From positions 12,452-76,451 of the IMG/VR virus record IMGVR_UViG_3300041955_000247: a DNA stretch of 64,000 nt. One strand, written 5' to 3'. Under the pieces are notes generated by a model. It saw nothing but the letters and a program-made list of their open reading frames with translations. It was not told the origin of the DNA and did not search any database. Source of the DNA: a virus. The position numbers and the translations under genes are program-made. This document shows, one piece after another, positions 7,894-54,863 of the stretch (position 1 is the stretch's first letter; every line of letters begins with the position of its first letter).

Positions 7894-8733
7894 ATGCAGC
7901 ACCCCTTCGAACAACTGAAGCCAGAATACACGTCATTGCTGGCCCATATGCAGCCCACGCGGGCGACGCAGATCGATCTGACGGCAAAGACACTTATCAA
8001 GTACATTGACAACAAGGATTACAAGCCCGGCTGTGATGCCACGGGCGTTCCTCAAATTGTTGCGGCTGCTTCATTTGAGCGTGAGGCCTCCTCTAATTTC
8101 AAGCTGAACCCGGCCCAAGGCTGGCCGCTTAATTCACGATCAAGGGATGTGCCCTACAACGGGCCATTCACCAATTGGACCGCTGCGCAAATAGCCGCCT
8201 ACAAAATTGATGGCTTGGACAAAATAGGTGCCCCGAACTGGTCATGGGAACAAGCTTGCTATGAGGAGGAACTGTTCAACGGTTTTGGGTACCGGCAGTA
8301 CGGTGTGCACTCACCTTACCTGTGGGCAGGCACGAACAACTACATCAAGGGTAAATTCACGTCCGATCATGGCTATGATCCGAACGAGGTGGACACTCAG
8401 CTTGGGGTGATCCCCATCATGTACCACATTGTGCAGTTACGGCCTGATTTGGCGCTGCCAATGGCCTTCCCCGGCCTCATGGGGGCCACCCCCATTGTTG
8501 CACCGATGCCAGCACCCATTGGGCTGCATGATGCTGAAGCCCTGCAAACGGCCCTCAATAAACTGGGCGCTGACCCGCAACTTACCGTGGACGGCAACTA
8601 CGGTCGTATGACCAGGAACGCTGTGCGTGACTTCCAGGCCAACATGGGCATCACGGTAGATGGGCTTGCTGGCCCAGCGACGTGGTCCTGTATCACTGAG
8701 AAGTTGGCTGATCCGGCAGGGTTTACAACTTAA
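7894..8733 (+). CDS. Endolysin (lysozyme-like domain plus C-terminal peptidoglycan-binding domain)
   Basis: REASSNF, FNGFGY, SPYLWAGTNNY..GKF..D motifs; LQTALN...VDGNYG..T..AVRDFQ...VDGLAGPATW PG-binding repeat. Confidence 0.85.
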   Translation: MQHPFEQLKPEYTSLLAHMQPTRATQIDLTAKTLIKYIDNKDYKPGCDATGVPQIVAAASFEREASSNFKLNPAQGWPLNSRSRDVPYNGPFTNWTAAQIAAYKIDGLDKIGAPNWSWEQACYEEELFNGFGYRQYGVHSPYLWAGTNNYIKGKFTSDHGYDPNEVDTQLGVIPIMYHIVQLRPDLALPMAFPGLMGATPIVAPMPAPIGLHDAEALQTALNKLGADPQLTVDGNYGRMTRNAVRDFQANMGITVDGLAGPATWSCITEKLADPAGFTT

Positions 8734-9036: not shown

Positions 9037-9411
9037 ATGGGTGAAAACATCCTTGCGGCACTTGGCGGCTTGTCGGGCCTCCTGACCTCCGCCCCCAGCG
9101 TTGGTATCCCGATCCTCAATGCTATCGGCCAACATATGCAGGGCAACAGCAACACCAATGCCAGCCTCAGCAACCTGCTCAGTCAGATGCAGAGCAACCC
9201 CGGCAGTGCTGCTACCTACGCGGCGCTGATTGCGTCCCTGCCAAACGTCCCGGCAGGTGTCCTCACCGAGGTCGAAGGGGCCGTTGCCCTTGCCTCTAAC
9301 GTGACGGCTTACGTGCAAGCTATCGTTGCCGCCAAGCAAGCGCTGAATGAGGCCACTTCCAATAGCGGCATTGGTTCCATTCTTGCTGGCCTGACGGTAC
9401 CCGCCGCGTAA
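9037..9411 (+). CDS. Hypothetical protein (lysis region)
   Basis: GGAG RBS, Ala/Leu-rich ORF. Confidence 0.55.
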   Translation: MGENILAALGGLSGLLTSAPSVGIPILNAIGQHMQGNSNTNASLSNLLSQMQSNPGSAATYAALIASLPNVPAGVLTEVEGAVALASNVTAYVQAIVAAKQALNEATSNSGIGSILAGLTVPAA

Positions 9412-12038: not shown

Positions 12039-13598
12039 TCAATTTGGTTCAATATGTGATCCGGTGGCGTCTTTGACTATGGTAATGGTGCCCCGGTATG
12101 AGTAATCCAACAGGTTATGCTCAATGAGAAAGCTTCGCTTACCTTGATCCAGGGCACGCTGGTTGAGGGTTTCAGCCAAGTCAAACATGCCCTCTTGGCT
12201 CAGGTGCCTGCTGGGTTCGTCAAAGAACTCCATGGTGCTGCGCAACCCGGCGCGCTCCATGATCAGGTTGGCCAGCCCCAGGTCACCGGCCAGCCTGAGT
12301 CTTTGTGTGGCCCCACCCCCAAAGGCCTCCCACTTGACCGGCCCTGGCGCACCGGGCGCATGGACAAGCACCGTGAAGCCCTTGGTGATGCCCCCTGACT
12401 TGTTCTCACGTTCAACGTCCAGTTCTATGTGCCAATTCACAAGGCCCAAGGCGGTGAGGCTGTTATTGATCTCAAGTTCCAGTTGCCTCAGCGTTTCTTC
12501 CACAATGAACAGCCTCACCCGCTTGAAACCGCCCACCCAGTAGCTGACGGCGGTGTGGTCTTCATCAATGGTCTTAATTTCGTGTTCCAAGTGGGCAATC
12601 TTGTTCTTGGCCAGTTCCAATGCAGCCTTCTTTTGGGTGATTTGCTCGGCGTAGGGGTTTTGGCGGGGTGAGAAGTCATACCGCTTCAGTTCCCCCAGCA
12701 TGTTGTCCTTCTCACGTTCCAGCTTGCGAAGCTGCCTTTCAAAATCAGATTGATTATTCAGGAAAGCATTGAGTTCCTTGTCGGCCACCGGCTGCCCGCA
12801 GGTAGGGCACTTCTTGGCTCCACGCTCAGCGTTGGCCAATTTGACTTCCAAGTTCTTGAGAGCCTTTTGTGTGAAAGCTATTGAATCGGTAGTATTAGCC
12901 AGATATTCTTTTGCTGTGGCCGCTTCTTGTTTCAGGATTTTGATGCGTTGGCCTTCAGCCTCACCAAAGGTCTTGTTCTTGACCTTCAGGGCCTCAATGT
13001 CACCGTCAATGGTCTCAAGCTGGCCCTTGTGCCGGGCAATTTCACGCTCAGCGGTAATCTTGGCTTCCAGCAGTTCCTTGGCCAGCTTCGCGGCTTCCTC
13101 ACTTTTGTCCAGCCAGTAATCCAGTTCCATGATCTGTGAGAACAGCGTCAGCTTGTCGCCGGGTGACAAGTCAAAGAAGGCATCACCGAACTGCGGGATC
13201 ATCACCGCATACATGAAAGCCTGCGGGCCTATTCTGAGGGTCTTTTGTAGGGTCTCTTGGTCTACCGGCTGATTGTTCAGCCGCAGACTGTTGGGGCTTT
13301 GTGTGCGGGTGACGGTAATATCGTTGTTGCCTATAAGGGCATGCACGGTGACTGAGCAGCTTTTGGCATCCCAATTGATCACGTCACCGGCCTTGAGGCC
13401 CCGCGTCGTGCTTCCGTAAAAGCACCAGAATATTGCTTCTAGGAGGGTGGTTTTACCCGCGTCATTTGCGCCCAGACGCGGGTACACAAGGTTCTTGCCG
13501 GTAATGCCATAGAGGCCCGGCTTGGTGGGGAACTCAAAGCTGTGCTTGCCACGGAAGGATTTGAAATCCTCCAGTTCAACCTTGGTTATGTCAAACAC
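12039..13598 (-). CDS. SbcC/Rad50/gp46-like SMC ATPase
   Basis: Walker A GANDAGKTT, zinc hook CPTC, signature-like FGGG, Walker B FFDEP, long coiled coil. Confidence 0.9.
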   Translation of the reverse strand: MFDITKVELEDFKSFRGKHSFEFPTKPGLYGITGKNLVYPRLGANDAGKTTLLEAIFWCFYGSTTRGLKAGDVINWDAKSCSVTVHALIGNNDITVTRTQSPNSLRLNNQPVDQETLQKTLRIGPQAFMYAVMIPQFGDAFFDLSPGDKLTLFSQIMELDYWLDKSEEAAKLAKELLEAKITAEREIARHKGQLETIDGDIEALKVKNKTFGEAEGQRIKILKQEAATAKEYLANTTDSIAFTQKALKNLEVKLANAERGAKKCPTCGQPVADKELNAFLNNQSDFERQLRKLEREKDNMLGELKRYDFSPRQNPYAEQITQKKAALELAKNKIAHLEHEIKTIDEDHTAVSYWVGGFKRVRLFIVEETLRQLELEINNSLTALGLVNWHIELDVERENKSGGITKGFTVLVHAPGAPGPVKWEAFGGGATQRLRLAGDLGLANLIMERAGLRSTMEFFDEPSRHLSQEGMFDLAETLNQRALDQGKRSFLIEHNLLDYSYRGTITIVKDATGSHIEPN

Positions 13599-24115: not shown

Positions 24116-24532
24116 CTAAGCAGCCTTGGTTAGTGAGGCGTTGAATTCCTCAGGTGTCACGCCGTAAGGCATCAAGGTGAGGGCCAGTAACTTGGCATGG
24201 TTTTCGTTGTCGATGAAATATCCAATTTTGTACACAGTACTTATATGAACGCCAAATCTGCCGAGACGTTGCCGTATCTTGCAAATGAAAACATCTACCG
24301 AACCACGCCCAGGCTGGTCAACTTCCGGCCTTAACCCATAGAGGTACTGCCACAAAACTTCTTTGGTAAGAACCCTGTTTTTGTGCTTGATAAAAACAGC
24401 AAGCAGAAGAGCTGCCTTGGGTGGTAAGTGAAAAGGCCAATGGTGTGCAGTGATACTCAATTCACGATTGATGTTGTTTATGTAGAATTCTAGTTCTTCA
24501 ACGCGGGCGCGCAGGCGTTCAAGTTCGTCCAT
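24116..24532 (-). CDS. OmpR/PhoB-type winged-helix protein resembling the CtrA DNA-binding domain, no receiver domain
   Basis: LTKEVLWQYLYG...VDVFICKIRQRL...ISTVYKIGY. Confidence 0.75.
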   Translation of the reverse strand: MDELERLRARVEELEFYINNINRELSITAHHWPFHLPPKAALLLAVFIKHKNRVLTKEVLWQYLYGLRPEVDQPGRGSVDVFICKIRQRLGRFGVHISTVYKIGYFIDNENHAKLLALTLMPYGVTPEEFNASLTKAA

Positions 24533-25851: not shown

Positions 25852-26814
25852 CTACTCCGGTGTCTTGAATATGAGCAGTCTTTCATGGATAGGAACCAGC
25901 TTCTTATTACGCCAGCTATTGGTAGAGCGGATCGCTGCTGATCCCCAGTTGCGGCTAAGTATAATATCTTGATAGAAAAGAAATCCAACCTCTTTGAAAT
26001 TCTCAATAGTGTGGCCGGGGAAATCGATCAACTCACCTTTTTTGTCACGAAAGTTTCCGACTACCATGCAAACAAAGCTGCCGGACTTCATTAGTTTTCG
26101 GTGAGCCAAAGCGGTAGAATACATTGCGAAGTTGAATTGTCCGTAGGTTCGAAGGTTGCTGAGGTCGTCGGGTCTGTCACTATACTTTTCAAGGTCGAAG
26201 TACGGCGGGCAAGACAAGGCAACATCAAATAGTCCAATTTCCTCCGCTTCCTGTAAATAGCGCCCATCACCACAGATATAACGCGCCCCTTCAAGGCTGA
26301 GTTCCTTGAGTACCCTGGTATTCTCATCTATTTGCTCCTGACGAATTTCGAAGCCCACATATTGATACCCCATAATAGTAGAGACAAGGCCGCGTGGGGG
26401 GCCACCCGCAAAAGCATCAAGTACCCGACCACCAGCATCACCACCATAACGCAACAAAATCCATTCAACCAAAGGAGCAGCGAAAACACTGTGTGTTCCA
26501 GTATAAGAGCTGTCATGATCTGCCCTCATGGTCTCTGAGCGCTCACCGTCATGGCCGGTTTCGCCGGTTAAGCGCCGCCAATCACGCACGCTGCGCTTGA
26601 TGATTTCATCCACGCGCCAGACCGAAGTGGTTGTCATGAACCACGATTTGCCCGCAGGTGGCCTTGTGTAGGCTTGCTGCGGGGTCAGCAGCAGCGGGCG
26701 TGACCGGTAAAGTGTCCTTCCCCCTGATTTAGTTTTGTAGAGCACTTTTGGGTGCCTGTTCCTTGGCTTTGTGATCCGCCTGCACCTTGGCCATGGTGGC
26801 AAGGAATGGCTCAA
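25852..26814 (-). CDS. DNA amino-methyltransferase (N4C/N6A); start uncertain
   Basis: LDAFAGG SAM-binding motif, SCPPY catalytic motif; annotated start overlaps upstream gene. Confidence 0.8.
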   Translation of the reverse strand: MSHSLPPWPRCRRITKPRNRHPKVLYKTKSGGRTLYRSRPLLLTPQQAYTRPPAGKSWFMTTTSVWRVDEIIKRSVRDWRRLTGETGHDGERSETMRADHDSSYTGTHSVFAAPLVEWILLRYGGDAGGRVLDAFAGGPPRGLVSTIMGYQYVGFEIRQEQIDENTRVLKELSLEGARYICGDGRYLQEAEEIGLFDVALSCPPYFDLEKYSDRPDDLSNLRTYGQFNFAMYSTALAHRKLMKSGSFVCMVVGNFRDKKGELIDFPGHTIENFKEVGFLFYQDIILSRNWGSAAIRSTNSWRNKKLVPIHERLLIFKTPE

Positions 26815-27803: not shown

Positions 27804-28328
27804 CTAGTTGAACAGCAGGTCATAAAGGGCGTCTTTCAGGTCAAAAGTGTCTGACAAACCCAGAATACGTCTCAGCTTCATATTCAGGTTCTCAAGCGGT
27901 TGCAGTTCTTCATTCAGCGTCATGGCAATGGCCAATTTCAGTTCTTGAGGGGCTTCATTGAGCAGCGCACTCAGGTAACCCGCATTGGTGGTGTCGCCGG
28001 TCATATTGTAACAGTAGTTGTTGACGTCCTCAGGCAGCACCGTGTAGGCGTTCTTGCGCCGTGAAATATAGCTTGATTTGTCGTTGAGGAGGTTTGTGAG
28101 GCACTTTTTGAAAAGCCCCATGAATTTGGCAGGCTCAAGAACCCGTGGGTAGCGTTCTGTCAGCTTCCAAAATAACAGGTGGGCTTCCTGGAGCAGATCA
28201 TCCTGGCCGTGCAGCCGATCACACCGCCATAGTTCGTGTCTTATGAATGACGTTGCCCAGTTCTTGATTGGCCCTTCCCAAATTGGTTCGCAATTCAACT
28301 GTACGCGCACATGTGTTGCATGCGGCAT
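27804..28328 (-). CDS. Sigma-factor-like protein
   Basis: QDDLLQEA.L.F.K...Y......F...F...L.N...D, sigma70 region 2-like. Confidence 0.55.
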   Translation of the reverse strand: MPHATHVRVQLNCEPIWEGPIKNWATSFIRHELWRCDRLHGQDDLLQEAHLLFWKLTERYPRVLEPAKFMGLFKKCLTNLLNDKSSYISRRKNAYTVLPEDVNNYCYNMTGDTTNAGYLSALLNEAPQELKLAIAMTLNEELQPLENLNMKLRRILGLSDTFDLKDALYDLLFN

Positions 28329-28545
28329 TGTAAGCCCCGTTGCTGATGATGAAGAACCCTCAATGAATTGGTAAGGCTACAATGCCGCAAGACCACGAAG
28401 CAACAGGAATAAAATTACACTCCTATGCCTTCTTGCGATTACGAGCCTATTGCCTTGTAATAGGCATACCACGTTAGATAGGTTGCGCCTTGCGTGCCTG
28501 GGCCATGCGGTTCGATAAGAGTCAATTTGAGTTTCACGGCCGCTC

Positions 28546-28692
28546 CTATTCCTCGTTGAGGTATTTGAGAAGATCGTCCACGTTATCAAAGGAGGCTTCG
28601 GGCGGCGCTGCATCAGCCTCCATAATAGAACGCACGAAAGTGGGATCGTATCCATCCCACCAACATCGCAATCGAAACCAAAGATCGCGCAC
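28546..28692 (-). CDS. Cassette gene, 48 aa hypothetical (not in ORF track)
   Basis: GTG after AGGAG; MRDLWFRLRCWWDG...LNEE; stop inside junction motif. Confidence 0.55.
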   Translation of the reverse strand: MRDLWFRLRCWWDGYDPTFVRSIMEADAAPPEASFDNVDDLLKYLNEE

Positions 28693-28709
28693 GCCGGTCT
28701 CCTATATCT

Positions 28710-29129
28710 CTACGGGGTTGCTGGTAAAATCTGTTTGACGATCCATCTTCGCATTCGGGCAAATCGCTGCTCTGGCGTTTCTTTTATATTAAAACCAAAA
28801 TCATCGTCGTTTTCAAAAACGACTTCGCGAGCCATCGCCGATGCAATCCCAAACACCGCAGACACTTTATCGGCGTCCTCATAGTCGAGGCCGAGCATAT
28901 CAATGCCGCGAGCCTTGCCTACCGCGCCTATGGCACAGACAGCGCCAGTATCAGGTTCAACAAGTTCACCGGCAATCAGTTTCTTTTCCGGTAACGCATC
29001 GAGCGCCGCAAGCATTTCCTTTAGGAAGGCTTGACCACGCCGACCTTTGATCGCGCTGGCGACCGCACCACGGTAAAGGTAGCCAGAATTATCCTCACCA
29101 TAATCATCGCTGTAGCCGCTGCGGCTCAT
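28710..29129 (-). CDS. Cassette gene, phage hypothetical protein
   Basis: MSRSGYSDD...RGAVASAIKGRRGQAFL; bounded by motifs. Confidence 0.7.
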   Translation of the reverse strand: MSRSGYSDDYGEDNSGYLYRGAVASAIKGRRGQAFLKEMLAALDALPEKKLIAGELVEPDTGAVCAIGAVGKARGIDMLGLDYEDADKVSAVFGIASAMAREVVFENDDDFGFNIKETPEQRFARMRRWIVKQILPATP

Positions 29130-29138
29130 GCTGGCTTC

Positions 29139-29456
29139 CTAATTCTCTTGGCCTGATTGTTGAACAATCGGCGTCGTAGGCACGCTGCACATCCCCCCGC
29201 CGCCAGTATGCTTAACGAAGAACTCAAGATGATCTGGCGAGCCTTCATCAAACACAATATCAAAGCCACACTCCCACATGCCGTCGCGTATTCGAGGCTC
29301 GACAAACTTTTTGAAACGTCCCTTGCGACCGTTGCTTAGAGTAAACTCTGTGCCGAACGGCAATCGCGCCCATATTTCTCGGATGACTTCTGGCATTTCA
29401 CCGTATAGTCCCGGCAAGTGTTCATCGAGGAAGTCTTGTGCCTCGTCCCGATTCAT
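29139..29456 (-). CDS. Cassette gene, hypothetical
   Basis: ATG at 29456 after ATAGGAACCACC; stop in motif. Confidence 0.6.
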   Translation of the reverse strand: MNRDEAQDFLDEHLPGLYGEMPEVIREIWARLPFGTEFTLSNGRKGRFKKFVEPRIRDGMWECGFDIVFDEGSPDHLEFFVKHTGGGGMCSVPTTPIVQQSGQEN

Positions 29457-29496
29457 GGTGGTTCCTATCATGCTTATCCGGTTTAGACACACAGCC

Positions 29497-29778
29497 CTAC
29501 ATCTTGTGTTCGAGTTTTTGTCGAGCAATCGCGGCCTGATCTTCGGCAACAATCCGCGCGTAGTTTGCGGTTTTGGCTTCATCGTCCGCCTTGCGCCGGG
29601 CCGCAAAGCCATCAAGAGCGCGCTGGAACGCCTGCCTTGGCGTCAGCCCCTGCTTAAAAAGCGGATACCAGTGCGATGTGTAGATAGTGAACTCACCGCG
29701 CTCGTAGCCAAATTCGCCTTGAATTACGTCCTCGTCGAGGGTCTGAATCCATTTTCTAAATTGTTTGCTCTGGATCAT
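29497..29778 (-). CDS. Passenger gene, hypothetical
   Basis: GGGGAG RBS; inside TIR element. Confidence 0.6.
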   Translation of the reverse strand: MIQSKQFRKWIQTLDEDVIQGEFGYERGEFTIYTSHWYPLFKQGLTPRQAFQRALDGFAARRKADDEAKTANYARIVAEDQAAIARQKLEHKM

Positions 29779-29793
29779 GGTTTCTCTCCCCGA

Positions 29794-30048
29794 CTAGATG
29801 ATCATCCGCAGCGGGATTGCATCGACGGTCGGACGCGGGTCCGCTTGCCGTTTCAGATCGCGCTCGAACTCGGCCGTCAATTCGTCAATATCCGGGTCGG
29901 ATTTTGGAATTTCCGGTGCAATTCTCGTGATGAAGCACTGCACCGGAATGCCGCCATCGGTCTCGCCCTGCCAAACACGCGCCGGAACGTCCCGGCCGCC
30001 GACTACGAGCGTCACGATCTTGCTGGTGCTCTCGATTCTGATCTTCAT
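29794..30048 (-). CDS. Passenger gene, hypothetical
   Basis: GAGG RBS; VPARVWQGET..GIPV. Confidence 0.65.
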   Translation of the reverse strand: MKIRIESTSKIVTLVVGGRDVPARVWQGETDGGIPVQCFITRIAPEIPKSDPDIDELTAEFERDLKRQADPRPTVDAIPLRMII

Positions 30049-30110
30049 TTGCCGCCTCTATATCTAGTAGGTCTCAGCGTTTGTGTGTGGCAACCGGATA
30101 AGCATGGTTC

Positions 30111-30302
30111 CTATTTTGGCAAGCGTATTAACTTGCGTGCGTTGGGCAGCATATTGTTATCATAATAAAGCAGCCCGGTCATGCCGTCGTCCCATCTGAC
30201 GAGAACGCAATAGTCGTCAGCGCGCTCGACTACACCGTGAGATGTGGCGACCACAACATCGGGCTGCTCAACCCGATCACCGACCTTTAGATGCGCCTTC
30301 AT
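30111..30302 (-). CDS. Cassette gene, small SH3/KOW-like hypothetical
   Basis: MKAHLKVGDRV...VRWDDG; starts after AGGAG, stop in motif. Confidence 0.6.
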   Translation of the reverse strand: MKAHLKVGDRVEQPDVVVATSHGVVERADDYCVLVRWDDGMTGLLYYDNNMLPNARKLIRLPK

Positions 30303-30310
30303 GACCGCTC

Positions 30311-30517
30311 CTATTTTGCTAATGCCGTTCGCGGCGAAAGTTTCTGTTTGACGGCACTCCAACGCACACGCCGCCGCGACAGTTCATTCTCTATCATTTT
30401 TAGGTTGCCGTAGATAATATCAGTCGGCATTCCACAGTCGCGGCGGCGCTTGAAATAGATGTTGATACGCTCCTGCAAATGGAGCAATCGCTCCGTATCT
30501 ATTTCAGCCACGCGCAC
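30311..30517 (-). CDS. Cassette gene, hypothetical
   Basis: Bounded by motifs; ends LAK*. Confidence 0.5.
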   Translation of the reverse strand: MRVAEIDTERLLHLQERINIYFKRRRDCGMPTDIIYGNLKMIENELSRRRVRWSAVKQKLSPRTALAK

Positions 30518-30528
30518 GCGAAAAACTC

Positions 30529-30783
30529 CTATACCTTCAGGCTGATTGCATCCGAAAAGAAAGTCTCGGCTTTTGTTCGCAACCCAGTATGGTGATCCAT
30601 CATCTTAGCGCCGCTGATTTTGTATTCGGCAAATGCGGTTTTTACCTCCTGCTCAGAGAGGCCGAGTGCGCACTGAATATCGAACACAACGCACCGCAAG
30701 TGACCGAGGCGCCGCAGTGCGCGTAGGTATTCGTTGATAGCCGTAGCTATCTCTCTAGATGATGGCCGAGGAACGCTGGACAC
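30529..30783 (-). CDS. Cassette gene, hypothetical
   Basis: Bounded by motifs. Confidence 0.55.
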   Translation of the reverse strand: MSSVPRPSSREIATAINEYLRALRRLGHLRCVVFDIQCALGLSEQEVKTAFAEYKISGAKMMDHHTGLRTKAETFFSDAISLKV

Positions 30784-30864
30784 GTTTGGCTCCTATTTTG
30801 CTAATGCCGTTCGCGGTCATGCACCCAACGGCCCTTGCGATCATTTGTTCACGCAAGCAGTCTC

Positions 30865-31122
30865 CTATTTTGACTTTGGCGGTTTAGGCAAAGGCATCCA
30901 ATGTGTCATGCCCACCCAATTAGGTTCTTCATCGCCATCACATAAATGCCACTCGCAGAGACAGCTACACCAGAACATGACAACATAATCAGAACGGGGC
31001 TTATCGCCCTTGGCTGGCTTCCCGTATCCCAAACGGGGCTTATCGCCCTTGGCTGGCTTCCCGTATCCCAAAATGCTGCGTCCGTCTTTCGGCGCAGTTT
31101 TGATGGATTGCCACGCGCTCAT
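30865..31122 (-). CDS. Cassette gene, DUF551-like protein with internal duplication
   Basis: WQSIKTAPKDG...THWMPLP.PP. Confidence 0.75.
   Translation of the reverse strand: MSAWQSIKTAPKDGRSILGYGKPAKGDKPRLGYGKPAKGDKPRSDYVVMFWCSCLCEWHLCDGDEEPNWVGMTHWMPLPKPPKSK
30993..31070. repeat. Perfect 39-bp tandem duplication (2 copies)
   Basis: AACGGGGCTTATCGCCCTTGGCTGGCTTCCCGTATCCCA x2, encoding LGYGKPAKGDKPR. Confidence 0.95.
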
Positions 31123-31130
31123 GGCCGCTC

Positions 31131-31379
31131 CTATTCCTCGTCGGGCTTATTGACGACATTGTAACCAGCCGCGTTCGATTTGCCATCTTCGTGCATGAAC
31201 CAATACGCAGACATCAAGCCGCCTGTGGTGGACTCGTCAATGCCGAGGCGATGAATTTGACGAGTAGGAAAAGAGCCATCAGCGCGTGGTCCCCATTGCT
31301 TCCAGCCAGCGAAATTTGTCTCAACAAGAACACACGATTCACCGTTCTCAAACTGAATTGGCTTGTTCCAATCAATCAC
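31131..31379 (-). CDS. Cassette gene, hypothetical
   Basis: MIDWNKPIQ; bounded by motifs. Confidence 0.6.
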   Translation of the reverse strand: MIDWNKPIQFENGESCVLVETNFAGWKQWGPRADGSFPTRQIHRLGIDESTTGGLMSAYWFMHEDGKSNAAGYNVVNKPDEE

Positions 31380-31390
31380 GCTACCCGCTC

Positions 31391-31564
31391 CTATTTTGAC
31401 TTTGGTTTACCGTTGACAGCTTCTATTGCAAATCGCCGAAGGGCATCTGCTGGACAAGCCGTGGCTCGATGTATTCGCCTTAGCTCACGTTCGTAGTAGC
31501 GCGCAACGCGGCGAAATGCTTTCCAGTCCTTCGGTCCAAGTTCGACCCTCGATAATCGGGACAT
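31391..31564 (-). CDS. Cassette gene, 57 aa hypothetical (not in ORF track)
   Basis: MSRLSRVELG...KPKSK*; bounded by motifs. Confidence 0.5.
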   Translation of the reverse strand: MSRLSRVELGPKDWKAFRRVARYYERELRRIHRATACPADALRRFAIEAVNGKPKSK

Positions 31565-31573
31565 GCCGCACTC

Positions 31574-31762
31574 CTATTTTGCTAGTTCGATTTCAGCGAC
31601 GAGGCCAAGAAGGTCCCGCTCCATCGCGTCCAACTCTTTAAGCCGAGAGGCGATTTGTTTGCGCTCCGCGTCGATTTTGCCTAGGCGGCCATCCACGCAA
31701 TCGCATGACGCATAATGATGGTTCATCTTACCGCAGCTTTGGCACTTCCGGGGCAAACGCAC
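31574..31762 (-). CDS. Cassette gene, small Cys-rich protein
   Basis: CQSC...CDC; ends LAK*. Confidence 0.55.
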   Translation of the reverse strand: MRLPRKCQSCGKMNHHYASCDCVDGRLGKIDAERKQIASRLKELDAMERDLLGLVAEIELAK

Positions 31763-31770
31763 GGCCGCTC

Positions 31771-31983
31771 CTATTCCTTCATCGCCTGTTTGGCGTGTTG
31801 CTTACAGAACCTTTGATCCGGCCCATAGCCACGTCTGCGGCGGCACTGATGGAACAAATAAGACACTCCATCGGCAACCTCTGCAATGCAATCGCCCCAT
31901 CGCTCGGCGTGGCCGTTCGGGTTACCAGCCCATGCGCCATACCGGCGCTTGCCGTCTTTTCCGGGGTTGGGGACGAGAACCAC
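31771..31983 (-). CDS. Cassette gene, small Cys/His protein
   Basis: C..QC.R..G.GP...FCKQH. Confidence 0.6.
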   Translation of the reverse strand: MVLVPNPGKDGKRRYGAWAGNPNGHAERWGDCIAEVADGVSYLFHQCRRRRGYGPDQRFCKQHAKQAMKE

Positions 31984-31992
31984 ACGAGTCTC

Positions 31993-32610
31993 CTATATCT
32001 CTTTCCGCTTCCTGTCCGCCGCGCGCTTGCGCACGAATCGGCCTTTCCCGACCTGCTTCCAGTGGCCGTACACACTGGCGGTCGAAACCCCCAGCTTCTC
32101 GGCCACCTTGGGGCCGGTCATGCCGCCGTTTAGAAGCTCGCCCACGCGCTTAATTCTGTCGGGTGTCATGTACACTTTCGGCCCCCAACTCTTGTCCTTG
32201 CGGCGCGCTCGTAGCGCGGCAATGCCCGCAGAGGTTCGCTGCGCGATGATCTGGCGCTCGAACTCGGCAACAAGGCCTAAAACACCAAGCACAAGTTTCC
32301 CCGATACAGTCCCGAAGTCGAAGTTTTCTTGGAGCGAGCGAAAATACGCGCCTTTGGCGTAAATTGCGTCGAGGCGAGCGTAAAGCTGCCGCATAGACCG
32401 CGCCAGCCGGTCAAGCCGCCACACAACGAAAGTATCGCCTTCGCGTAAATCCTTGATGGCGTAATCCAGCGCCGGGCGCTTAGCGGATGCCCCGGATACC
32501 TTTTCAACGTGCAGATTGTCCGGCTTGACCCCCGCCGCCTTGAGGGCGTCGGTTTGCAGGTCAAGCGATTGATCTTCGGTCGAGACGCGGGCATAGCCGA
32601 CAAGTGCCAT
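31993..32610 (-). CDS. Serine recombinase (resolvase/invertase family, C-terminal HTH)
   Basis: GYARVST.DQ catalytic Ser, VVWRLDRLARS, AEFER..I..RT..G, C-terminal HTH VAEKLGVSTASVY. Confidence 0.95.
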   Translation of the reverse strand: MALVGYARVSTEDQSLDLQTDALKAAGVKPDNLHVEKVSGASAKRPALDYAIKDLREGDTFVVWRLDRLARSMRQLYARLDAIYAKGAYFRSLQENFDFGTVSGKLVLGVLGLVAEFERQIIAQRTSAGIAALRARRKDKSWGPKVYMTPDRIKRVGELLNGGMTGPKVAEKLGVSTASVYGHWKQVGKGRFVRKRAADRKRKEI

Positions 32611-32636
32611 TTCCTGTACCTAAGCAGATTGGCAGC

Positions 32637-32666
32637 ATACTATATGGGACTTGACAACCTGTCAAG
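32637..32666 (-). promoter_or_regulatory. Sigma70-type promoter for recombinase within palindrome CTTGACA-ACC-TGTCAAG (back-to-back -35 boxes)
   Basis: Minus strand TTGACA-17 nt-TAGTAT; plus-strand TTGACA at 32651 faces right arm. Confidence 0.6.
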
Positions 32667-32706
32667 ACCGTGATTTGATTAAAAGACAGAATGGAGATTC
32701 AGGCCG

Positions 32707-33003
32707 ATGCCATGCTATCAGCCCAATGGAACGCCACTGACTGACCGAGAGCGTGAAGTGTTGGTCATTCTGATGGAAGAATGCGCCGAGGTCATTCAGG
32801 CAGCGAGCAAGCTGATCCGGTTTGGCAAAGAGACCCGTCCCGATGATTTGCATTTGCCGAATAGCGAAGTTCTCGGCATCGAGATTGGCGATCTAAAATG
32901 TATGATTGACAATGTGTTGTTCGAGGGGATCATCAGCCAAGAACACTTGACGCTCGGCGCGAAACGCAAGCAAGCTCGGCTTGCTCAGTATATGCAGACG
33001 TAA
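32707..33003 (+). CDS. Cassette gene, MazG-like nucleotide pyrophosphohydrolase
   Basis: EECAEVIQAASK..RFG...EIGDL. Confidence 0.7.
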   Translation: MPCYQPNGTPLTDREREVLVILMEECAEVIQAASKLIRFGKETRPDDLHLPNSEVLGIEIGDLKCMIDNVLFEGIISQEHLTLGAKRKQARLAQYMQT

Positions 33004-33020
33004 ATTGAAGGAATAGGCCG

Positions 33021-33344
33021 ATGGTTCAGACGCGCGATTTTCCCACTGCCGTTATCGCATCAATTTCGACCGGCATATTGCTCTGTGACTTTGGCAAGAT
33101 GCAGGAAGCGGCCGAGTATCTCATGGGGCACCCGATCTGGACGCATCATTTCGCTGACAAAACTCTTACTTTGGAAATGAAACGAACGATTGCCGAGCAA
33201 TGTCCTGGTATGCCGATGGAGATTGATGGTGTGACGAAGGACAACTATCTGGAAAAACTAGCCGTCATCGAAGCTGAAATCGGCAAGACCGTTCGCATCC
33301 GTAAGGGCCGCGGCCTCACCGCGATGTTGCCGGCCGGTGGTTGA
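33021..33344 (+). CDS. Cassette gene, hypothetical
   Basis: ATG directly after AATAGGCCG. Confidence 0.65.
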   Translation: MVQTRDFPTAVIASISTGILLCDFGKMQEAAEYLMGHPIWTHHFADKTLTLEMKRTIAEQCPGMPMEIDGVTKDNYLEKLAVIEAEIGKTVRIRKGRGLTAMLPAGG

Positions 33345-33474
33345 GAACTGCGCCGTCGATGATTGTCGCAAGCGCGAATATATCGCGGAGATCGAGTTGC
33401 TTCGCGCGGAGATCGAGGCGCTTAAACTTGAAATCAAGATGTACGAACAGAGGTTTGCCGAGTTGGCAAAATAG
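33337..33474 (+). CDS. Cassette gene, 45 aa coiled coil (not in ORF track)
   Basis: GTG start; ends RFAELAK* inside repeat. Confidence 0.4.
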   Translation: MVENCAVDDCRKREYIAEIELLRAEIEALKLEIKMYEQRFAELAK

Positions 33475-33478
33475 GCCG

Positions 33479-33778
33479 ATGACAGCGGATTTGGGTAAAG
33501 AGGCGTTTTATGCGTCCTTGGCGATTATTGGCTTCGTTCTGGGAATGCTCGGCATTCATTGTCATCGATGGAACTCCTTACTACGAGTAGCCGCAATCTT
33601 TTTTGGCTTATTCCTCTGTGCCTTTGGCCTCGGTTCTACTTTGATCGTGCGTTCTGAGCGCGTCTCCGCCGCCCCCGGGATCATAATCGCCCTTTCGCCT
33701 TTGGCCCTGACCGATCCAAGGCTTTTGAAACCCATAGAAAACGGGAGGCTTACGAGGTTTGCCGAGTTGGCAAAATAG
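33479..33778 (+). CDS. Cassette gene, membrane protein
   Basis: ATG after AATAGGCCG, two TM helices, ends RFAELAK*. Confidence 0.55.
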   Translation: MTADLGKEAFYASLAIIGFVLGMLGIHCHRWNSLLRVAAIFFGLFLCAFGLGSTLIVRSERVSAAPGIIIALSPLALTDPRLLKPIENGRLTRFAELAK

Positions 33779-34093
33779 CCCGCTAATACGGAATTAACAT
33801 GGATCAACGCACACGAACACTGTTGCTCGCGATTTACGGCACCAAGGCTGCGGCTGGAGTAATTGTGTTAGCCGTGCTGCTTATCTATCACTTCTGGGGC
33901 TGATGGTGATGCGCGGAACGATAATCGTTGCCTCCGTTGTATTTGGGGGGGTCCTCGGTGGGCAACAGCAACCATTTGCGGCTGGGCTGTTCTTTGGTCC
34001 GGTCTGTTTGCCTGCTACGATTTGGCGCGTTAATGACAGATTAACAGGAACAAGGAATAGGCCGCTAATGCGTCGTTAGTCGGGATTTGCACG

Positions 34094-34381
34094 ATGATCG
34101 AAATGGTTCCTAGGCCCCACATCGTTCGCCGCACTTGTGGCGGTTACTTGGCCGTTGCATCAAAGCGAGCCCGGTTCCGAATTGGCGTCACGGCGGAAAC
34201 AGAGGCGGCGGCCGAACATAAGTTCTGGTTCACCTACGTCCGATGGTGCGAACTGGTCCCACTGGAAGCTGTCGGCGAGTGCACCCAATTAACAGCGCCT
34301 CATCTTCGTGGTGAGCGTGAGCCTATCGAGAGGTTGGCTTGGGGGTGCACTCACCAGCAGCGTCAAACAAAATCGGTCTAA
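34094..34381 (+). CDS. Cassette gene, hypothetical
   Basis: ORF between last two right-arm motifs. Confidence 0.45.
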   Translation: MIEMVPRPHIVRRTCGGYLAVASKRARFRIGVTAETEAAAEHKFWFTYVRWCELVPLEAVGECTQLTAPHLRGEREPIERLAWGCTHQQRQTKSV

Positions 34382-34413
34382 CACGGGGTTAGCAGAAACA
34401 AGGAATAGGCCGG

Positions 34414-35358
34414 TTATAATTGCAAGACTTGCTTTGCAGTAAGCAGGCCGGGGTCTTTCACCCCTGACGGCAACATAGCAATTTGCACATTGGCCCCCGG
34501 CAGGCTGTCGCAAAGGCTCAGCGCACTACCTAAAGCTTCGCTGTCAAACAGCACCCGCACCTTGTCATACTTTGGAATGAGCGCTTGCAGGGCAGCAAGT
34601 TGCCCCGCCGTGGGGTTAACCCCAAAAGTGCAGGTGGCCCGATGCCCATGTGGTGCCCCGTAGTAATCCACCTTGATGGCGTCAAACGGCCCCTCTGTCA
34701 CAAACAGCGTCTCACCGCCGTGACTGAGATCATGCTCATTGAACACCACGGTTTTGATAGCCGCCGACGAACTGAGATAGCGCGGTGCGTGAGTGGTAGG
34801 TTGAATGGCGCGGGCTGTCCAACCCGCCAGTTCGCCGTTGCTTTGCTGAATGGGTATGATGATCCGGTCCTTCCACCTGCCATGCTGGCAGCACAACAAG
34901 TCGTATTGCTCAATCAGGGTGCTAACATCATCAAAGCCCCTGCCCTCAAGGTACCGCCAAAAACGCCCTGTAAGCCCCGTGGGCTTGATTTGCCTAAATT
35001 CAGGGGGTAGCTGGCTGGGCAATTCATCACGCTGTACGGGCTGCGCTGAGCCACCCAGGGCCATTATGGCCTGCTCAAGGGTTTCAGGGTCGGCGGCGCT
35101 GTGCTGCCCCACAATCAACCGGGCTTGGCTGAATGAACAGCTCAGCAGGGCCGCCACAAGGCTGTAGGGCTTGCGCCCAGCGTGCTTGGCGTTGCGCCAG
35201 CAGCCAAAGGCGTCCTTGGTCAGTGAGATGGAAAGATGTTCGCTTGGATCATCAGGACCGCACCAGGGGCACTTTAGGGCAAGCTGGCCCTTTCGGACGT
35301 TAGGCCCACTGGTGACATAATCAATATGATTGGCTTCTAGGAACGCTACCCAGTCCAT
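34414..35358 (-). CDS. DNA primase (zinc finger plus TOPRIM)
   Basis: CPWC...H...CWR, RIIIP, EGPFD, D...PSGVKDPG. Confidence 0.85.
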   Translation of the reverse strand: MDWVAFLEANHIDYVTSGPNVRKGQLALKCPWCGPDDPSEHLSISLTKDAFGCWRNAKHAGRKPYSLVAALLSCSFSQARLIVGQHSAADPETLEQAIMALGGSAQPVQRDELPSQLPPEFRQIKPTGLTGRFWRYLEGRGFDDVSTLIEQYDLLCCQHGRWKDRIIIPIQQSNGELAGWTARAIQPTTHAPRYLSSSAAIKTVVFNEHDLSHGGETLFVTEGPFDAIKVDYYGAPHGHRATCTFGVNPTAGQLAALQALIPKYDKVRVLFDSEALGSALSLCDSLPGANVQIAMLPSGVKDPGLLTAKQVLQL

Positions 35359-35741
35359 CAGTATGGTATCTCGTTGACAGGTGCTACATCAAATTCAACA
35401 AAGCTGGTGCGTTGATTGGCCCGCTGTTCTTTCTTGGTAGCCCATTGGCAATTGTCCTTAAAGTAACCGAGATTGCCGTCTTTGCGGTCCAAAGTCATTT
35501 CCCTGCAAGGTCGCTCACCCATGTCCTCGAGGAAGTTCCTGAAGGCATCAGGCGAACCGCGCCGCCAGCGTTCGCAGACCTCAATGCCACGGCCACCATA
35601 CAAATGGTACCACTTGTGGGTGCTTTGATAGCAACGCGAATTCATGGATTCCCACGACAAGTAAGTGGGTGATTTCTTGACCTTCCATTTGCCTTTGATG
35701 TTGCGGGTGCGTGACGTGTGGCCGTGGCGCTTCCCTGTCAT
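35358..35741 (-). CDS. HNH-type endonuclease
   Basis: YGGRGIEVCERW, F..DMGERP, TLDR.D...Y..DNCQWAT..EQ..N. Confidence 0.85.
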   Translation of the reverse strand: MTGKRHGHTSRTRNIKGKWKVKKSPTYLSWESMNSRCYQSTHKWYHLYGGRGIEVCERWRRGSPDAFRNFLEDMGERPCREMTLDRKDGNLGYFKDNCQWATKKEQRANQRTSFVEFDVAPVNEIPY

Positions 35742-36286
35742 TTATAGGCCCTCATGGCATGATGGTTACAATACGTGTGGTCGGTCCATGCACCACAAAA
35801 GAAAAAGTCTTTGTCACCCACGTCTCCAACGGCCCATCGGCATGTGTGGCCGTTGAGTTGCAGCAGTGTAAGCCGCTGTTCCTGAGGAATGGCTTTATCG
35901 TATTCTGAGGGTTTGATATGAATGGGTTCGGTGGGGGTGCTGTCGGGTATGTCAACGGCAAGGGCGATACGGAGGCGTCGCTTCTTGGTGAAATGGGTGT
36001 AGGCTTGAATAACCTTTTGCGGATTGGGCTGAACTGGTCTGACTGTTGCACCTTTGGCCCGATGCCGGGGGCGGCCTCCTGGGCTGGCCTTGTTCTTGAA
36101 AATATGTAAACGGTGCATTTTGCCTATGACGGCATTACGGGTGGCAAACCCTAGTTTGTCGGCTATTGCACTGGCTGATAATCCAGCCGCTGCATATTCT
36201 CTAAGCTCAGCCTCTTTCTTTTTGTCCCATCCTGGGTTCTGGTTCTGTTTGTACTTTTGTTCGGACGGTGTATCCAAATATGTCAC
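35738..36286 (-). CDS. gcrA: GcrA-family cell-cycle regulator
   Basis: W......L......GLSAS.IA..LG..TRNAVIGK.HRL; LL.L...TCRW..GD....DF.FCG...YC..H...AY. Confidence 0.88.
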   Translation of the reverse strand: MTYLDTPSEQKYKQNQNPGWDKKKEAELREYAAAGLSASAIADKLGFATRNAVIGKMHRLHIFKNKASPGGRPRHRAKGATVRPVQPNPQKVIQAYTHFTKKRRLRIALAVDIPDSTPTEPIHIKPSEYDKAIPQEQRLTLLQLNGHTCRWAVGDVGDKDFFFCGAWTDHTYCNHHAMRAYK

Positions 36287-54740: not shown

Positions 54741-54863
54741 TTGGAGGTTCGAGAGAAGCATCTTGGTGTCGAAGTGTCTTAAGACACTTTGGACACTGGG
54801 ATTAGCGGAGTGGTGGGTGGAATAGGGGGTAGAATCGTTGGGATGTGCTTGGATGTGGAGCTA

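Follow-up and report, generated by a model that had tools for sequence, protein, structure and literature searches.

What exchanges the accessory genes of phages, and at which DNA sequence does the exchange take place? The question is raised here by an island of about 23 tiny genes in a 64-kb stretch (the window) of one 76,451-bp virus record (IMG/VR IMGVR_UViG_3300041955_000247, positions 12,452 to 76,451). The island is about 6 kb long and lies directly after the stop codon of a primase gene. Its two outward-facing operons flank a central control region beside a small serine recombinase gene, and a short motif with the core ATAGG recurs at the gene junctions. A preliminary description, made from the letters of the window alone, proposed an integron analogue in which the serine recombinase excises, inserts and shuffles promoterless cassettes at the ATAGG junctions of both arms. 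We found that genes are exchanged one by one at these junctions and that relatives of the phage do without the island. On balance we favour a reading in which the phage's own recombination, and not the serine recombinase, shuffles the genes.

Exchange of single genes at the island junctions

Genes of the island are exchanged singly at the junctions. In support of the preliminary description, near-identical DNA in other contigs and metagenomes ends exactly at the motifs. (Other virus loci and contigs are called loci below, to keep them apart from the left-arm cassettes, whose names also begin with L.) Loci L002 and L009 share one 51-aa open reading frame (ORF) that is 97% identical in nucleotides, while their recombinase genes are only 71% identical at the DNA level; the shared block begins directly after the upstream 7-mer and ends at TAG. 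The left-arm cassette L139 is 99.3% identical in the sister contig, locus L057, where its neighbours on both sides are different. The block shared by the window and locus L057 begins right after TTAGGAA/ATAGGAG and ends with ...ATAGGAG.

Contigs, not raw reads, of four other metagenomes (runs X2-X5, from soil, freshwater and lake) were compared with the window at positions 25-38 kb, and island stretches with little or no contig cover were not counted as absence. Loose contig ends were located at 31990, 30862, 34064/5 and 34412, the last in run X2, and contig joints replaced exactly the ORF of the right-arm cassette R95 (34096 to 34378). The summed depth was 26-40x in the recombinase region, with several contigs per sample, and 1-10x in the arms. 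This peak indicates that many islands coexist, with recombinase genes at least 90% identical in nucleotides and with other arms.

The crossover points lay 0 to 5 nt after TAG. Extended junction repeats reach into the upstream ORF in the window, into the downstream ORF in locus L001 (30 nt) and across a 72-nt hairpin element in locus L009. Such variable crossover points and repeat extents are what homology-driven exchange, and not a fixed site, leaves behind. In 16 other phages, homologues of L139 stand in arrays of the TGA type that lack the motif. Hence the motif is a property of the array rather than of the gene, which sets it apart from the attC of integrons.

All of the five longest exact repeats in the 76-kb genome (28, 25, 19, 19 and 18 nt) are junctions of the island (Table 1), and comparable junction repeat pairs are present in loci L009 (72 nt) and L001 (30 nt). 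The 72-nt element of locus L009 occurs at 8609-8680, directly after the recombinase stop, and again 594 nt on, at 9203-9274. It contains a CCCCACCGG...CCGGTGGGG hairpin between two motifs that resemble Shine-Dalgarno (SD) sequences, and may represent either a structured element between genes or a miniature mobile element.

On its two strands the window has 17 copies of ATAGGAG, against 3.08 ± 1.65 expected from dinucleotide-preserving shuffles, none of which reached 17 (0/100). All 12 minus-strand copies are within 28420-31996. With genes called by our own simple codon-usage caller, TAG ends 15 of the 16 left-arm genes (the recombinase counted), compared with 23 of the 122 called outside the island (Fisher p = 4.7e-9). 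The shuffles and these stop-codon statistics rule out that the motif arose by chance or from base composition. Elsewhere in this phage, the small-gene arrays at 52-61 kb show TGA and ATGA overlaps, and TAG-GAG junctions are rare in the backbone, where the preliminary description had allowed that they might be equally frequent.

The AGGAG of the motif stands 5-8 nt before the start codon of every left-arm gene (uAGGAG-N5-8-start), giving the junction form RRA-ATAGGAG-N5-8-RTG. The right-arm form is (AAGGA or CAAA)ATAGGCCG(ATG), with a short style AAGGAAuAGGCCG-ATG, and the intergenic spacers within the island are 8-17 nt long. Judged by position and spacing, the ATAGG motif reads as a TAG stop codon fused to the predicted SD sequence of the next gene. 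This kind of fusion is not confined to TAG, for TGAGGAG and TAAGGAG are present in islands too. Across 11 islands (94 recombinase-arm and 51 divergent-arm junctions), the conserved span extends from about -3 to +5 around TAG; it is about 9 nt long, asymmetric and without dyad, and the information content beyond it is near zero. TAG is the gene end in 57/94 recombinase-arm genes and 33/51 divergent-arm genes.

Every pentamer listed in the preliminary description is present at its position, and several call for another reading. The one at 28446 falls inside an ORF and is not a junction. Those at 29464 and 30110, given as two junctions, form an 8-bp target duplication, one original junction having been split by an IS1595-type element. 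The pentamers at 30864 and 30792 bound a 72-nt remnant without an ORF and hence no gene, and those at 28422 and 34405 stand at the ends of the arms, where no gene follows. The claim that the motif supplies the TAG of the upstream gene holds for the left arm, but in the right arm only the copies at 33471 and 33775 give a stop; those at 32699 and 33013 merely precede starts, and that at 34057 is vestigial. The genes were also said to point away from the recombinase gene; only the right arm diverges from it, for the left arm is co-directional with the recombinase, its first gene. The stop of the recombinase gene does lie inside a motif, its TAG being part of the junction 31990-31996.

As shown in Table 1, the leftward operon, of about 14 tiny ORFs, begins with the recombinase gene, and the rightward operon has seven ORFs that converge on the primase gene. 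Apart from L85 and L139, no left-arm cassette matched a Pfam or PHROG family. Some of the tiny right-arm ORFs appear hydrophobic. Each arm ends in a motif copy without an ORF; together the two copies form an imperfect terminal inverted repeat, CCTATnCCTTnTT, of 17 nt (12/17 matching), with TAA on both flanks. Cassette L85 contains a 39-bp tandem repeat (30954-31070) encoding LGYGKPAKGDKPR twice, and contigs of two other metagenomes have one copy fewer (joint 30993 to 31033).

One left-arm junction is interrupted by a non-autonomous insertion sequence (IS) element of 638 bp. Its 25-nt terminal inverted repeats match at 22 of 25 positions, and it is flanked by the 8-bp target duplication GTTCCTAT (also written ATAGGAAC). 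In locus L005 the same end sequence adjoins an IS1595 DDE transposase (PF12762, 3.5e-31), and the end sequence is in locus L013 too. In the four other metagenomes, the element ends lie at a depth peak and are multi-copy, with many different flanks and interiors. The inverted repeats, the 8-bp duplication and the transposase-linked ends in locus L005 mark 29461-30114 as a member of the IS1595 family. The element stands out by its place within an accessory island of a phage and by its content, which is two small passenger ORFs in the absence of a transposase.

Table 1. Features of the island and of its flanks (positions in the window).
Feature	Position	Strand	Remarks
Sigma-like gene	27804-28328	-	Backbone flank; label of the preliminary description; PHROG 35491, no function assigned
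Ancestral primase-to-sigma-like spacer	28329-28409	-	Now cut off from the primase by the island; aligned by eye with loci L055 and L012
Terminal left-arm motif	28410-28426	-	ATAGGAG (28420-28426), then TGTAATTTTA; no ORF behind; left boundary of the island
Left (recombinase-side) arm	28420-31996	-	Junctions RRA-ATAGGAG-N5-8-RTG
L32	28439-28537	-	Left-arm cassette
L48	28546-28692	-	Left-arm cassette
L139	28710-29129	-	Left-arm cassette; matches PHROG 25637
L105	29139-29456	-	Left-arm cassette
IS1595-family element with target duplications	29461-30114	-	638 bp; non-autonomous; in one left-arm junction
Target duplication	29461-29468 and 30107-30114		8 bp
Terminal inverted repeats of the element	29469-29493 and 30082-30106		25 nt
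L93	29497-29778		Passenger ORF
L84a	29794-30048		Passenger ORF
L66	30111-30302	-	Left-arm cassette
L68	30311-30517	-	Left-arm cassette
L84b	30529-30783	-	Left-arm cassette
ORF-less remnant	30797-30861	-	Left arm
L85	30865-31122	-	Left-arm cassette; matches DUF551
L82	31131-31379	-	Left-arm cassette
L57	31391-31564	-	Left-arm cassette
L62	31574-31762	-	Left-arm cassette
L70	31771-31983	-	Left-arm cassette
Small serine recombinase, Gin/resolvase type	31993-32610	-	205 aa; first gene of the leftward operon
Central divergent control region	32611-32706	.	Between recombinase and R98
Right (divergent) arm	32707-34412	+	Junctions (AAGGA or CAAA)ATAGGCCG(ATG)
R98	32707-33003	+	MazG-like nucleoside triphosphate pyrophosphohydrolase
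R107	33021-33344	+	DUF7736
R45	33337-33474	+	Right-arm cassette
R99	33479-33778	+	Membrane protein
R34	33799-33903	+	Right-arm cassette
R58	33903-34079	+	Right-arm cassette
R95	34094-34381	+	Right-arm cassette
Terminal right-arm motif ATAGGCCG	34405-34412	+	No gene behind; just before the primase stop (TTA, 34414-34416, + strand)
Primase	34414-35358	-	Backbone flank; weak DNAG_N match
28-nt exact junction repeat	30307-30334 and 30789-30816	-	Brackets L84b and L68
25-nt exact junction repeat	33450-33474 and 33754-33778		Brackets R99
19-nt exact junction repeat	28538-28556 and 31123-31141
19-nt exact junction repeat	28535-28553 and 31760-31778
18-nt exact junction repeat	30862-30879 and 31388-31405

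Acquisition of the island and the conserved recombinase

According to the preliminary description, related phages should have the primase gene adjacent to the sigma-like gene. Such an arrangement was found in loci L012/L056, L054 and L055, where the primase is 65-70% identical and the gap is within about 90 bp. The block is thus a discrete and dispensable island, absent from these relatives; the complete 95-kb genome behind locus L012 contains no homologue of the recombinase. The spacer that follows the primase in locus L055 (TTCCTGTTGC...) is found in the window from 28409 leftwards, beyond the last left-arm motif. Since 6 kb now separate the primase stop from its former spacer, the island was acquired. 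For the other islands, no empty-versus-filled pair was found.

In the sister contig L057 the primase is 96% identical in nucleotides, and the match to the window extends up to 34410. After ...TTATAACCGG, this contig has four other small genes, co-directional with the primase and joined by ATAGGAG, then L139 and then a different gene. Its ATAGGAG array starts right after the primase, and no recombinase is present in the 1.3 kb before the shared cassette L139. Loci L052 and L053 have other continuations after the primase. Given these differing contents, the locus acts as a recombination hotspot and not as the place of one single insertion. Variable small-gene arrays are also located on the opposite side of the primase with respect to the island, between a 127-aa gene and the primase, in loci L055 (1263-9999, about 26 ORFs) and L012 (7365-9987). 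Their junctions are of the TGA type, and they have no recombinase. In this phage group the primase is hyperplastic on both sides.

The product of the recombinase gene matched Pfam Resolvase (PF00239) with 2.9e-38 over residues 4-136 and PHROG 125 DNA invertase with 8.8e-56; the best PDB matches were Mu Gin (3.3e-33) and gamma-delta resolvase (4e-26). Its translation has the catalytic serine motif Y-x-R-V-S-T as YARVST (MALVGYARVSTEDQ), with RLDRLAR further on. The match of the C-terminal region to HTH_7 is weak (E = 0.0019, below the Pfam cut-off), and the Gin alignment spans residues 3-181.

The control region upstream of the recombinase contains the palindrome CTTGACAACCTGTCAAG at 32650-32666, which occurs once in the genome and reads as overlapping face-to-face -35 boxes. 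A leftward promoter, TTGACA-17-TAGTAT from 32665 to 32637, is predicted by the promoter scan (10/12, sigma-70-like). We infer from these letters a palindromic pair of overlapping divergent promoters, with a putative rightward promoter and a presumed control function. The same scan found promoter-like and terminator-like sites within the arms no more often than expected by chance. The TTGACA-N3(-9)-TGTCAA palindrome and a third TGACAA box upstream of the recombinase are kept in loci L002-L006, L009, L013 and L014. The three TTGACA/TGTCAA boxes have a spacing unlike that of res, and they coincide with -35 boxes.

Homologues of the recombinase, 57-86% identical in amino acids, were found in nine IMG/VR loci and two contigs of metagenome-assembled genomes. 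The DNA that these relatives share with the window is essentially the recombinase gene alone. No window cassette was found in them by tBLASTN with all window cassettes, and an all-against-all comparison of 287 arm ORFs gave only a handful of cassette families common between islands. Eight islands (loci L001, L002, L003, L005, L006, L009, L013 and L014) have the same layout, with TAGGAG-type junctions 3' of the recombinase, AAGGAATAGGCCS-type junctions in the divergent arm, and the palindrome and third box in the central region. The recombinase homologues thus lie, as predicted, in two-armed arrays where the same motifs bound different genes. Members of the island family are spread over diverse phages of wetland, soil and freshwater. 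Three of the islands lie in complete phage genomes, of 56, 73 and 103 kb, which contain one recombinase each. In one phage, an 85% identical recombinase is accompanied by SNF2 and DnaB homologues of 32-36% identity.

Candidate target sites of the recombinase were sought in the whole genome. Gin/Hin-type crossover sites of the form AAACC-NN-GGTTT were not found. No paired dyad sites were found among the nine 26-bp near-palindromes, nor any paired 26-28-bp sites, and no long inverted repeats are present besides the ends of the IS element. Transposon-like terminal repeats were considered as a general feature of the islands and rejected, for the island of locus L002 ends in ordinary terminators, without motif-like inverted repeats. 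The near-palindromic box CTAACACGGGGTTAG at 34378-34392, between the last right-arm ORF and the primase, was also rejected as a recombinase site; it is single-copy in the window and, among the loci, occurs only in L051-L053. Loci L052 and L053 have the box inverted, where the primase ORF ends. A loose contig end of run X2 bears ACACGGGGTTAG.

The genome encodes a DNA polymerase, sliding clamp, clamp loader, SSB-like protein, UvsX-like recombinase, SbcC/SbcD-like nuclease, RusA-like resolvase, DnaB-like helicase, primase, N6/N4 methyltransferase and GcrA-like protein. A 516-aa gene is provisionally labelled SNF2-like from its sequence. Given the UvsX-, SbcCD- and RusA-like genes, the phage has T4-style recombination functions. 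No single-strand annealing protein (Erf, RecT, Sak) was found among the 20 proteins scanned, the UvsX-like recombinase being found in its place. ARAGORN found no tRNA genes, and there is accordingly no sign of TAG suppression. No similar phage DNA was found by megablast of 26-38 kb against 50,697 deposited phage genomes, and no relatives of the sigma-like protein were found in IMG/VR. The GcrA-like protein (35738-36286, Pfam 4.7e-28) hints at an alphaproteobacterial host. Near the island there are also the DNA methyltransferase gene (25852-26814) and a gene for a small transcription-regulator-like protein (24116-24532); as predicted from sequence, this trio would be consistent with interference in the alphaproteobacterial cell cycle. 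In locus L012 (12518-14605), and in L056, the homologue of the methyltransferase is found by tBLASTN in two pieces about 1.1 kb apart, which suggests an inserted intron, intein or homing element. The other small-gene region of the phage contains a perfect 18-bp palindrome, AAGTGTCTTAAGACACTT, at 54772-54789.

Comparison with known systems

Integrons have the tyrosine recombinase IntI, an attI site, a Pc promoter and, at the 3' end of each cassette, an attC hairpin that travels with the cassette. The island resembles them in its arrays of apparently promoterless single-gene cassettes beside the predicted promoter of a recombinase gene, and in its hypervariable content with boundaries at a repeated sequence. 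It differs in its serine-type recombinase, the lack of attC hairpins, the spacers of 8-17 nt, the two arms and its location in a phage. The tests for a tyrosine recombinase and for attC were both negative, and the island is therefore not an integron. With the Mu Gin and Hin invertases and the gamma-delta/Tn3 resolvases, the recombinase shares fold and catalytic motif; it is 205 aa in size, with a putative C-terminal helix-turn-helix region. Its gene adjoins a conserved regulatory region, as resolvase genes adjoin res. Unlike those systems, the island lacks paired gix- or hix-like inverted sites, a three-subsite res, and an evident invertible segment or cointegrate context.

The closest precedents are found in other phages. 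Modular shuffling in T4-type phages goes through promoter-early stem-loops (PeSLs) repeated at the gene boundaries, with mini-circles being formed (Arbiol et al. 2010, PMC2839356), and PeSLs in the hyperplastic regions of these phages have also been described by Comeau et al. (2014, PMC4122927). In these phages and in the island alike, small non-essential genes of a hyperplastic region have a short regulatory repeat at their boundaries, the repeat delimits the insertions, deletions and replacements seen among close relatives, and T4-like recombination genes are present; the repeat pairs around one or two genes of the island resemble mini-circle products. A PeSL, however, consists of a sigma-70 promoter and a stem-loop terminator, whereas an island junction is a stop and an SD sequence within 9-28 nt. 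The island genes also differ in being apparently promoterless and in lying in two operons, with two arm-specific junction versions and a central conserved serine recombinase.

The start-associated sequence (SAS) of Cluster K mycobacteriophages, GGGATAGGAGCCC, is described by Pope et al. (2011, PMC3203893) as oriented, located 3-7 bp before the starts of non-structural genes only, and sometimes holding the upstream stop. SAS and the island motif share the core ATAGGAG(C), asymmetry, a single orientation, a position few nt before the starts of non-structural genes, and rarity elsewhere in the genome. The island motif lacks the GGG/CCC flanks, the full 13-bp GGGATAGGAGCCC and the 17-bp inverted repeats (ESAS) described there. 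TAG is the actual stop at most island junctions, and the phages are unrelated and environmental. The available part of PMC3203893 does not report gene swapping for SAS. With PeSL shuffling and SAS as close precedents, the statement of the preliminary description that no comparable layout was known is overstated. What is new is a two-armed island family centred on a palindromic divergent promoter and a Gin-like recombinase that is conserved, with two arm-specific junction styles, spread across diverse phages.

Candidate mechanisms of the exchange

The reading that we think probable, if not by far, is an acquired, dispensable accessory-gene island, that is, a hyperplastic region, with junction-mediated modular shuffling by the phage's own recombination. 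The first job of the motif, to judge from its position and spacing, would be the termination and re-initiation of translation. The junctions (9-28 nt) are the only repeated DNA of the island, and recombination between co-infecting relatives would resolve there, with whole genes exchanged, added or deleted as the outcome. The UvsX-like, SbcCD-like and RusA-like proteins would carry out this general or microhomology recombination, as with PeSLs. That the phage has the same toolkit as the T4-type phages speaks for a mechanism that is facilitated but general. The two junction styles would confine the exchange to homologous arms. The serine recombinase, as the conserved hub, would more likely act at the level of the island, in its mobility, its maintenance or autoregulation at the central palindrome, than at every junction.

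Several observations weigh against this reading. The recombinase is the sole gene retained by islands whose cassettes almost all differ; such a conserved hub calls for a function tied to the island, possibly the turnover of cassettes. Very different phages keep the arm-specific styles, which a translation-only view does not predict. The motif retains its TAG also at junctions whose true stop lies further upstream (the TGAatATAGAGGAG class; TGAatATAGAGG(AG/CC)), so termination alone does not account for the motif. The identical junction pairs of 18-72 nt bracket one or two cassettes in the manner of circle reinsertion, which either mechanism could yield. With spacers of just 8-17 nt, any viable crossover at a gene boundary lands on the motif, so that the coincidence of breakpoints and motifs cannot discriminate between mechanisms. 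The gene calls are all from our own, crude caller.

The conserved hub, the arm-specific styles, the retained TAG and the ORF-less motif copies at the arm ends leave a slim chance to the integron analogue of the preliminary description. In its more specific form, which we hold to be just as doubtful, the Gin-like recombinase captures and shuffles cassettes by way of a half-site-like RRAATAGG and an arm-specific overlap dinucleotide (AG/CC), the sequence doubling as stop and ribosome-binding site. The dinucleotide after ATAGG, AG in one arm and CC in the other, is indeed conserved in all islands and could be a crossover overlap that keeps the arms separate, and no gene other than the recombinase, which every two-armed array has at its hub, is conserved. 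Its own stop inside a junction, the breakpoints at motifs, the identical junction pairs around single cassettes, as reinserted circles would give, and the ORF-less motif copies at both arm ends, with their imperfect terminal inverted repeat, would fit as well. The small serine recombinases Gin, Hin and gamma-delta resolvase, however, use dyad sites of 26-34 bp, whereas the core of the junctions is about 9 nt, has neither a second half-site nor a dyad, and equals a stop and a ribosome-binding site; paired sites are lacking, and crossover points and repeat extents vary. Many arm junctions in the islands have no motif, with TGA or TAA stops. The recombinase of locus L004 (78% identical) is accompanied by the palindrome and has no motif arms, while the ATAGGAG array of locus L057 stands directly after the primase and the L139 homologues of 16 other phages are motif-free. 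A scan of IMG/VR for triple ATAGGAG gave 80 loci, several unrelated phages with ATAGGAG-N5-8-ATG arrays among them, and no recombinase homologue was found in these loci as fetched. The scan was insensitive, with fixed spacing, known relatives missed and many matches being tandem repeats, and it shows only that arrays can exist without the recombinase. The use of ATAGG as the site of the serine recombinase is thus not borne out.

The recombinase might instead integrate and excise the whole island in phage genomes, with the junctions being purely translational. We regard such a mobile element as unlikely, although relatives differ in having the island, beyond which the ancestral spacer is retained, TAA stands on both flanks of ends that form the imperfect inverted repeat (12/17), islands are found in complete phage genomes (56, 73 and 103 kb), and one phage combines an 85% identical recombinase with SNF2 and DnaB homologues of 32-36% identity. 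Loci L057, L052 and L053 hold other content at the same place, as expected of a hotspot and not of one insertion; the plain terminators at the ends of the L002 island, the lack of an empty-versus-filled pair for other islands and of a second copy of any candidate site in the genome also speak against it. A further possibility, which we judge quite improbable, is that a trans-acting factor regulates the island mRNAs by binding or cleaving them at the motif, which would be retained chiefly for this, with swapping as a by-product. SAS and T4 RegB, which cleaves at GGAG, are the models for such regulation. The TAG and the A-rich bases before it are conserved beyond the needs of 16S pairing or termination, the styles are island-specific and unlike the rest of the genome, and ATAGGAG(C) is the centre of the SAS consensus given in PMC3203893. 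No candidate factor was found, little information lies outside the stop and SD sequence, and SAS itself has no established function (PMC3203893).

Accessory genes of phages, for host takeover, anti-defence and similar functions, turn over very fast by a route that is only partly understood. The island family is a clean natural example of gene-by-gene exchange at a 9-nt "adaptor" of stop and ribosome-binding site, of which two versions are kept apart on two operons. The conserved recombinase and the palindromic promoter hub make the family easy to find in metagenomes, and the hub makes the question of the swapping enzyme testable with one protein and one short site. If it is true that the recombinase swaps the genes, the islands would represent a new kind of gene-capture system that might serve as a tool, an integron counterpart with two arms and a serine recombinase, carried by diverse environmental phages. 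If general recombination swaps them, the PeSL principle would extend to a minimal translational signal and to phages unrelated to T4.

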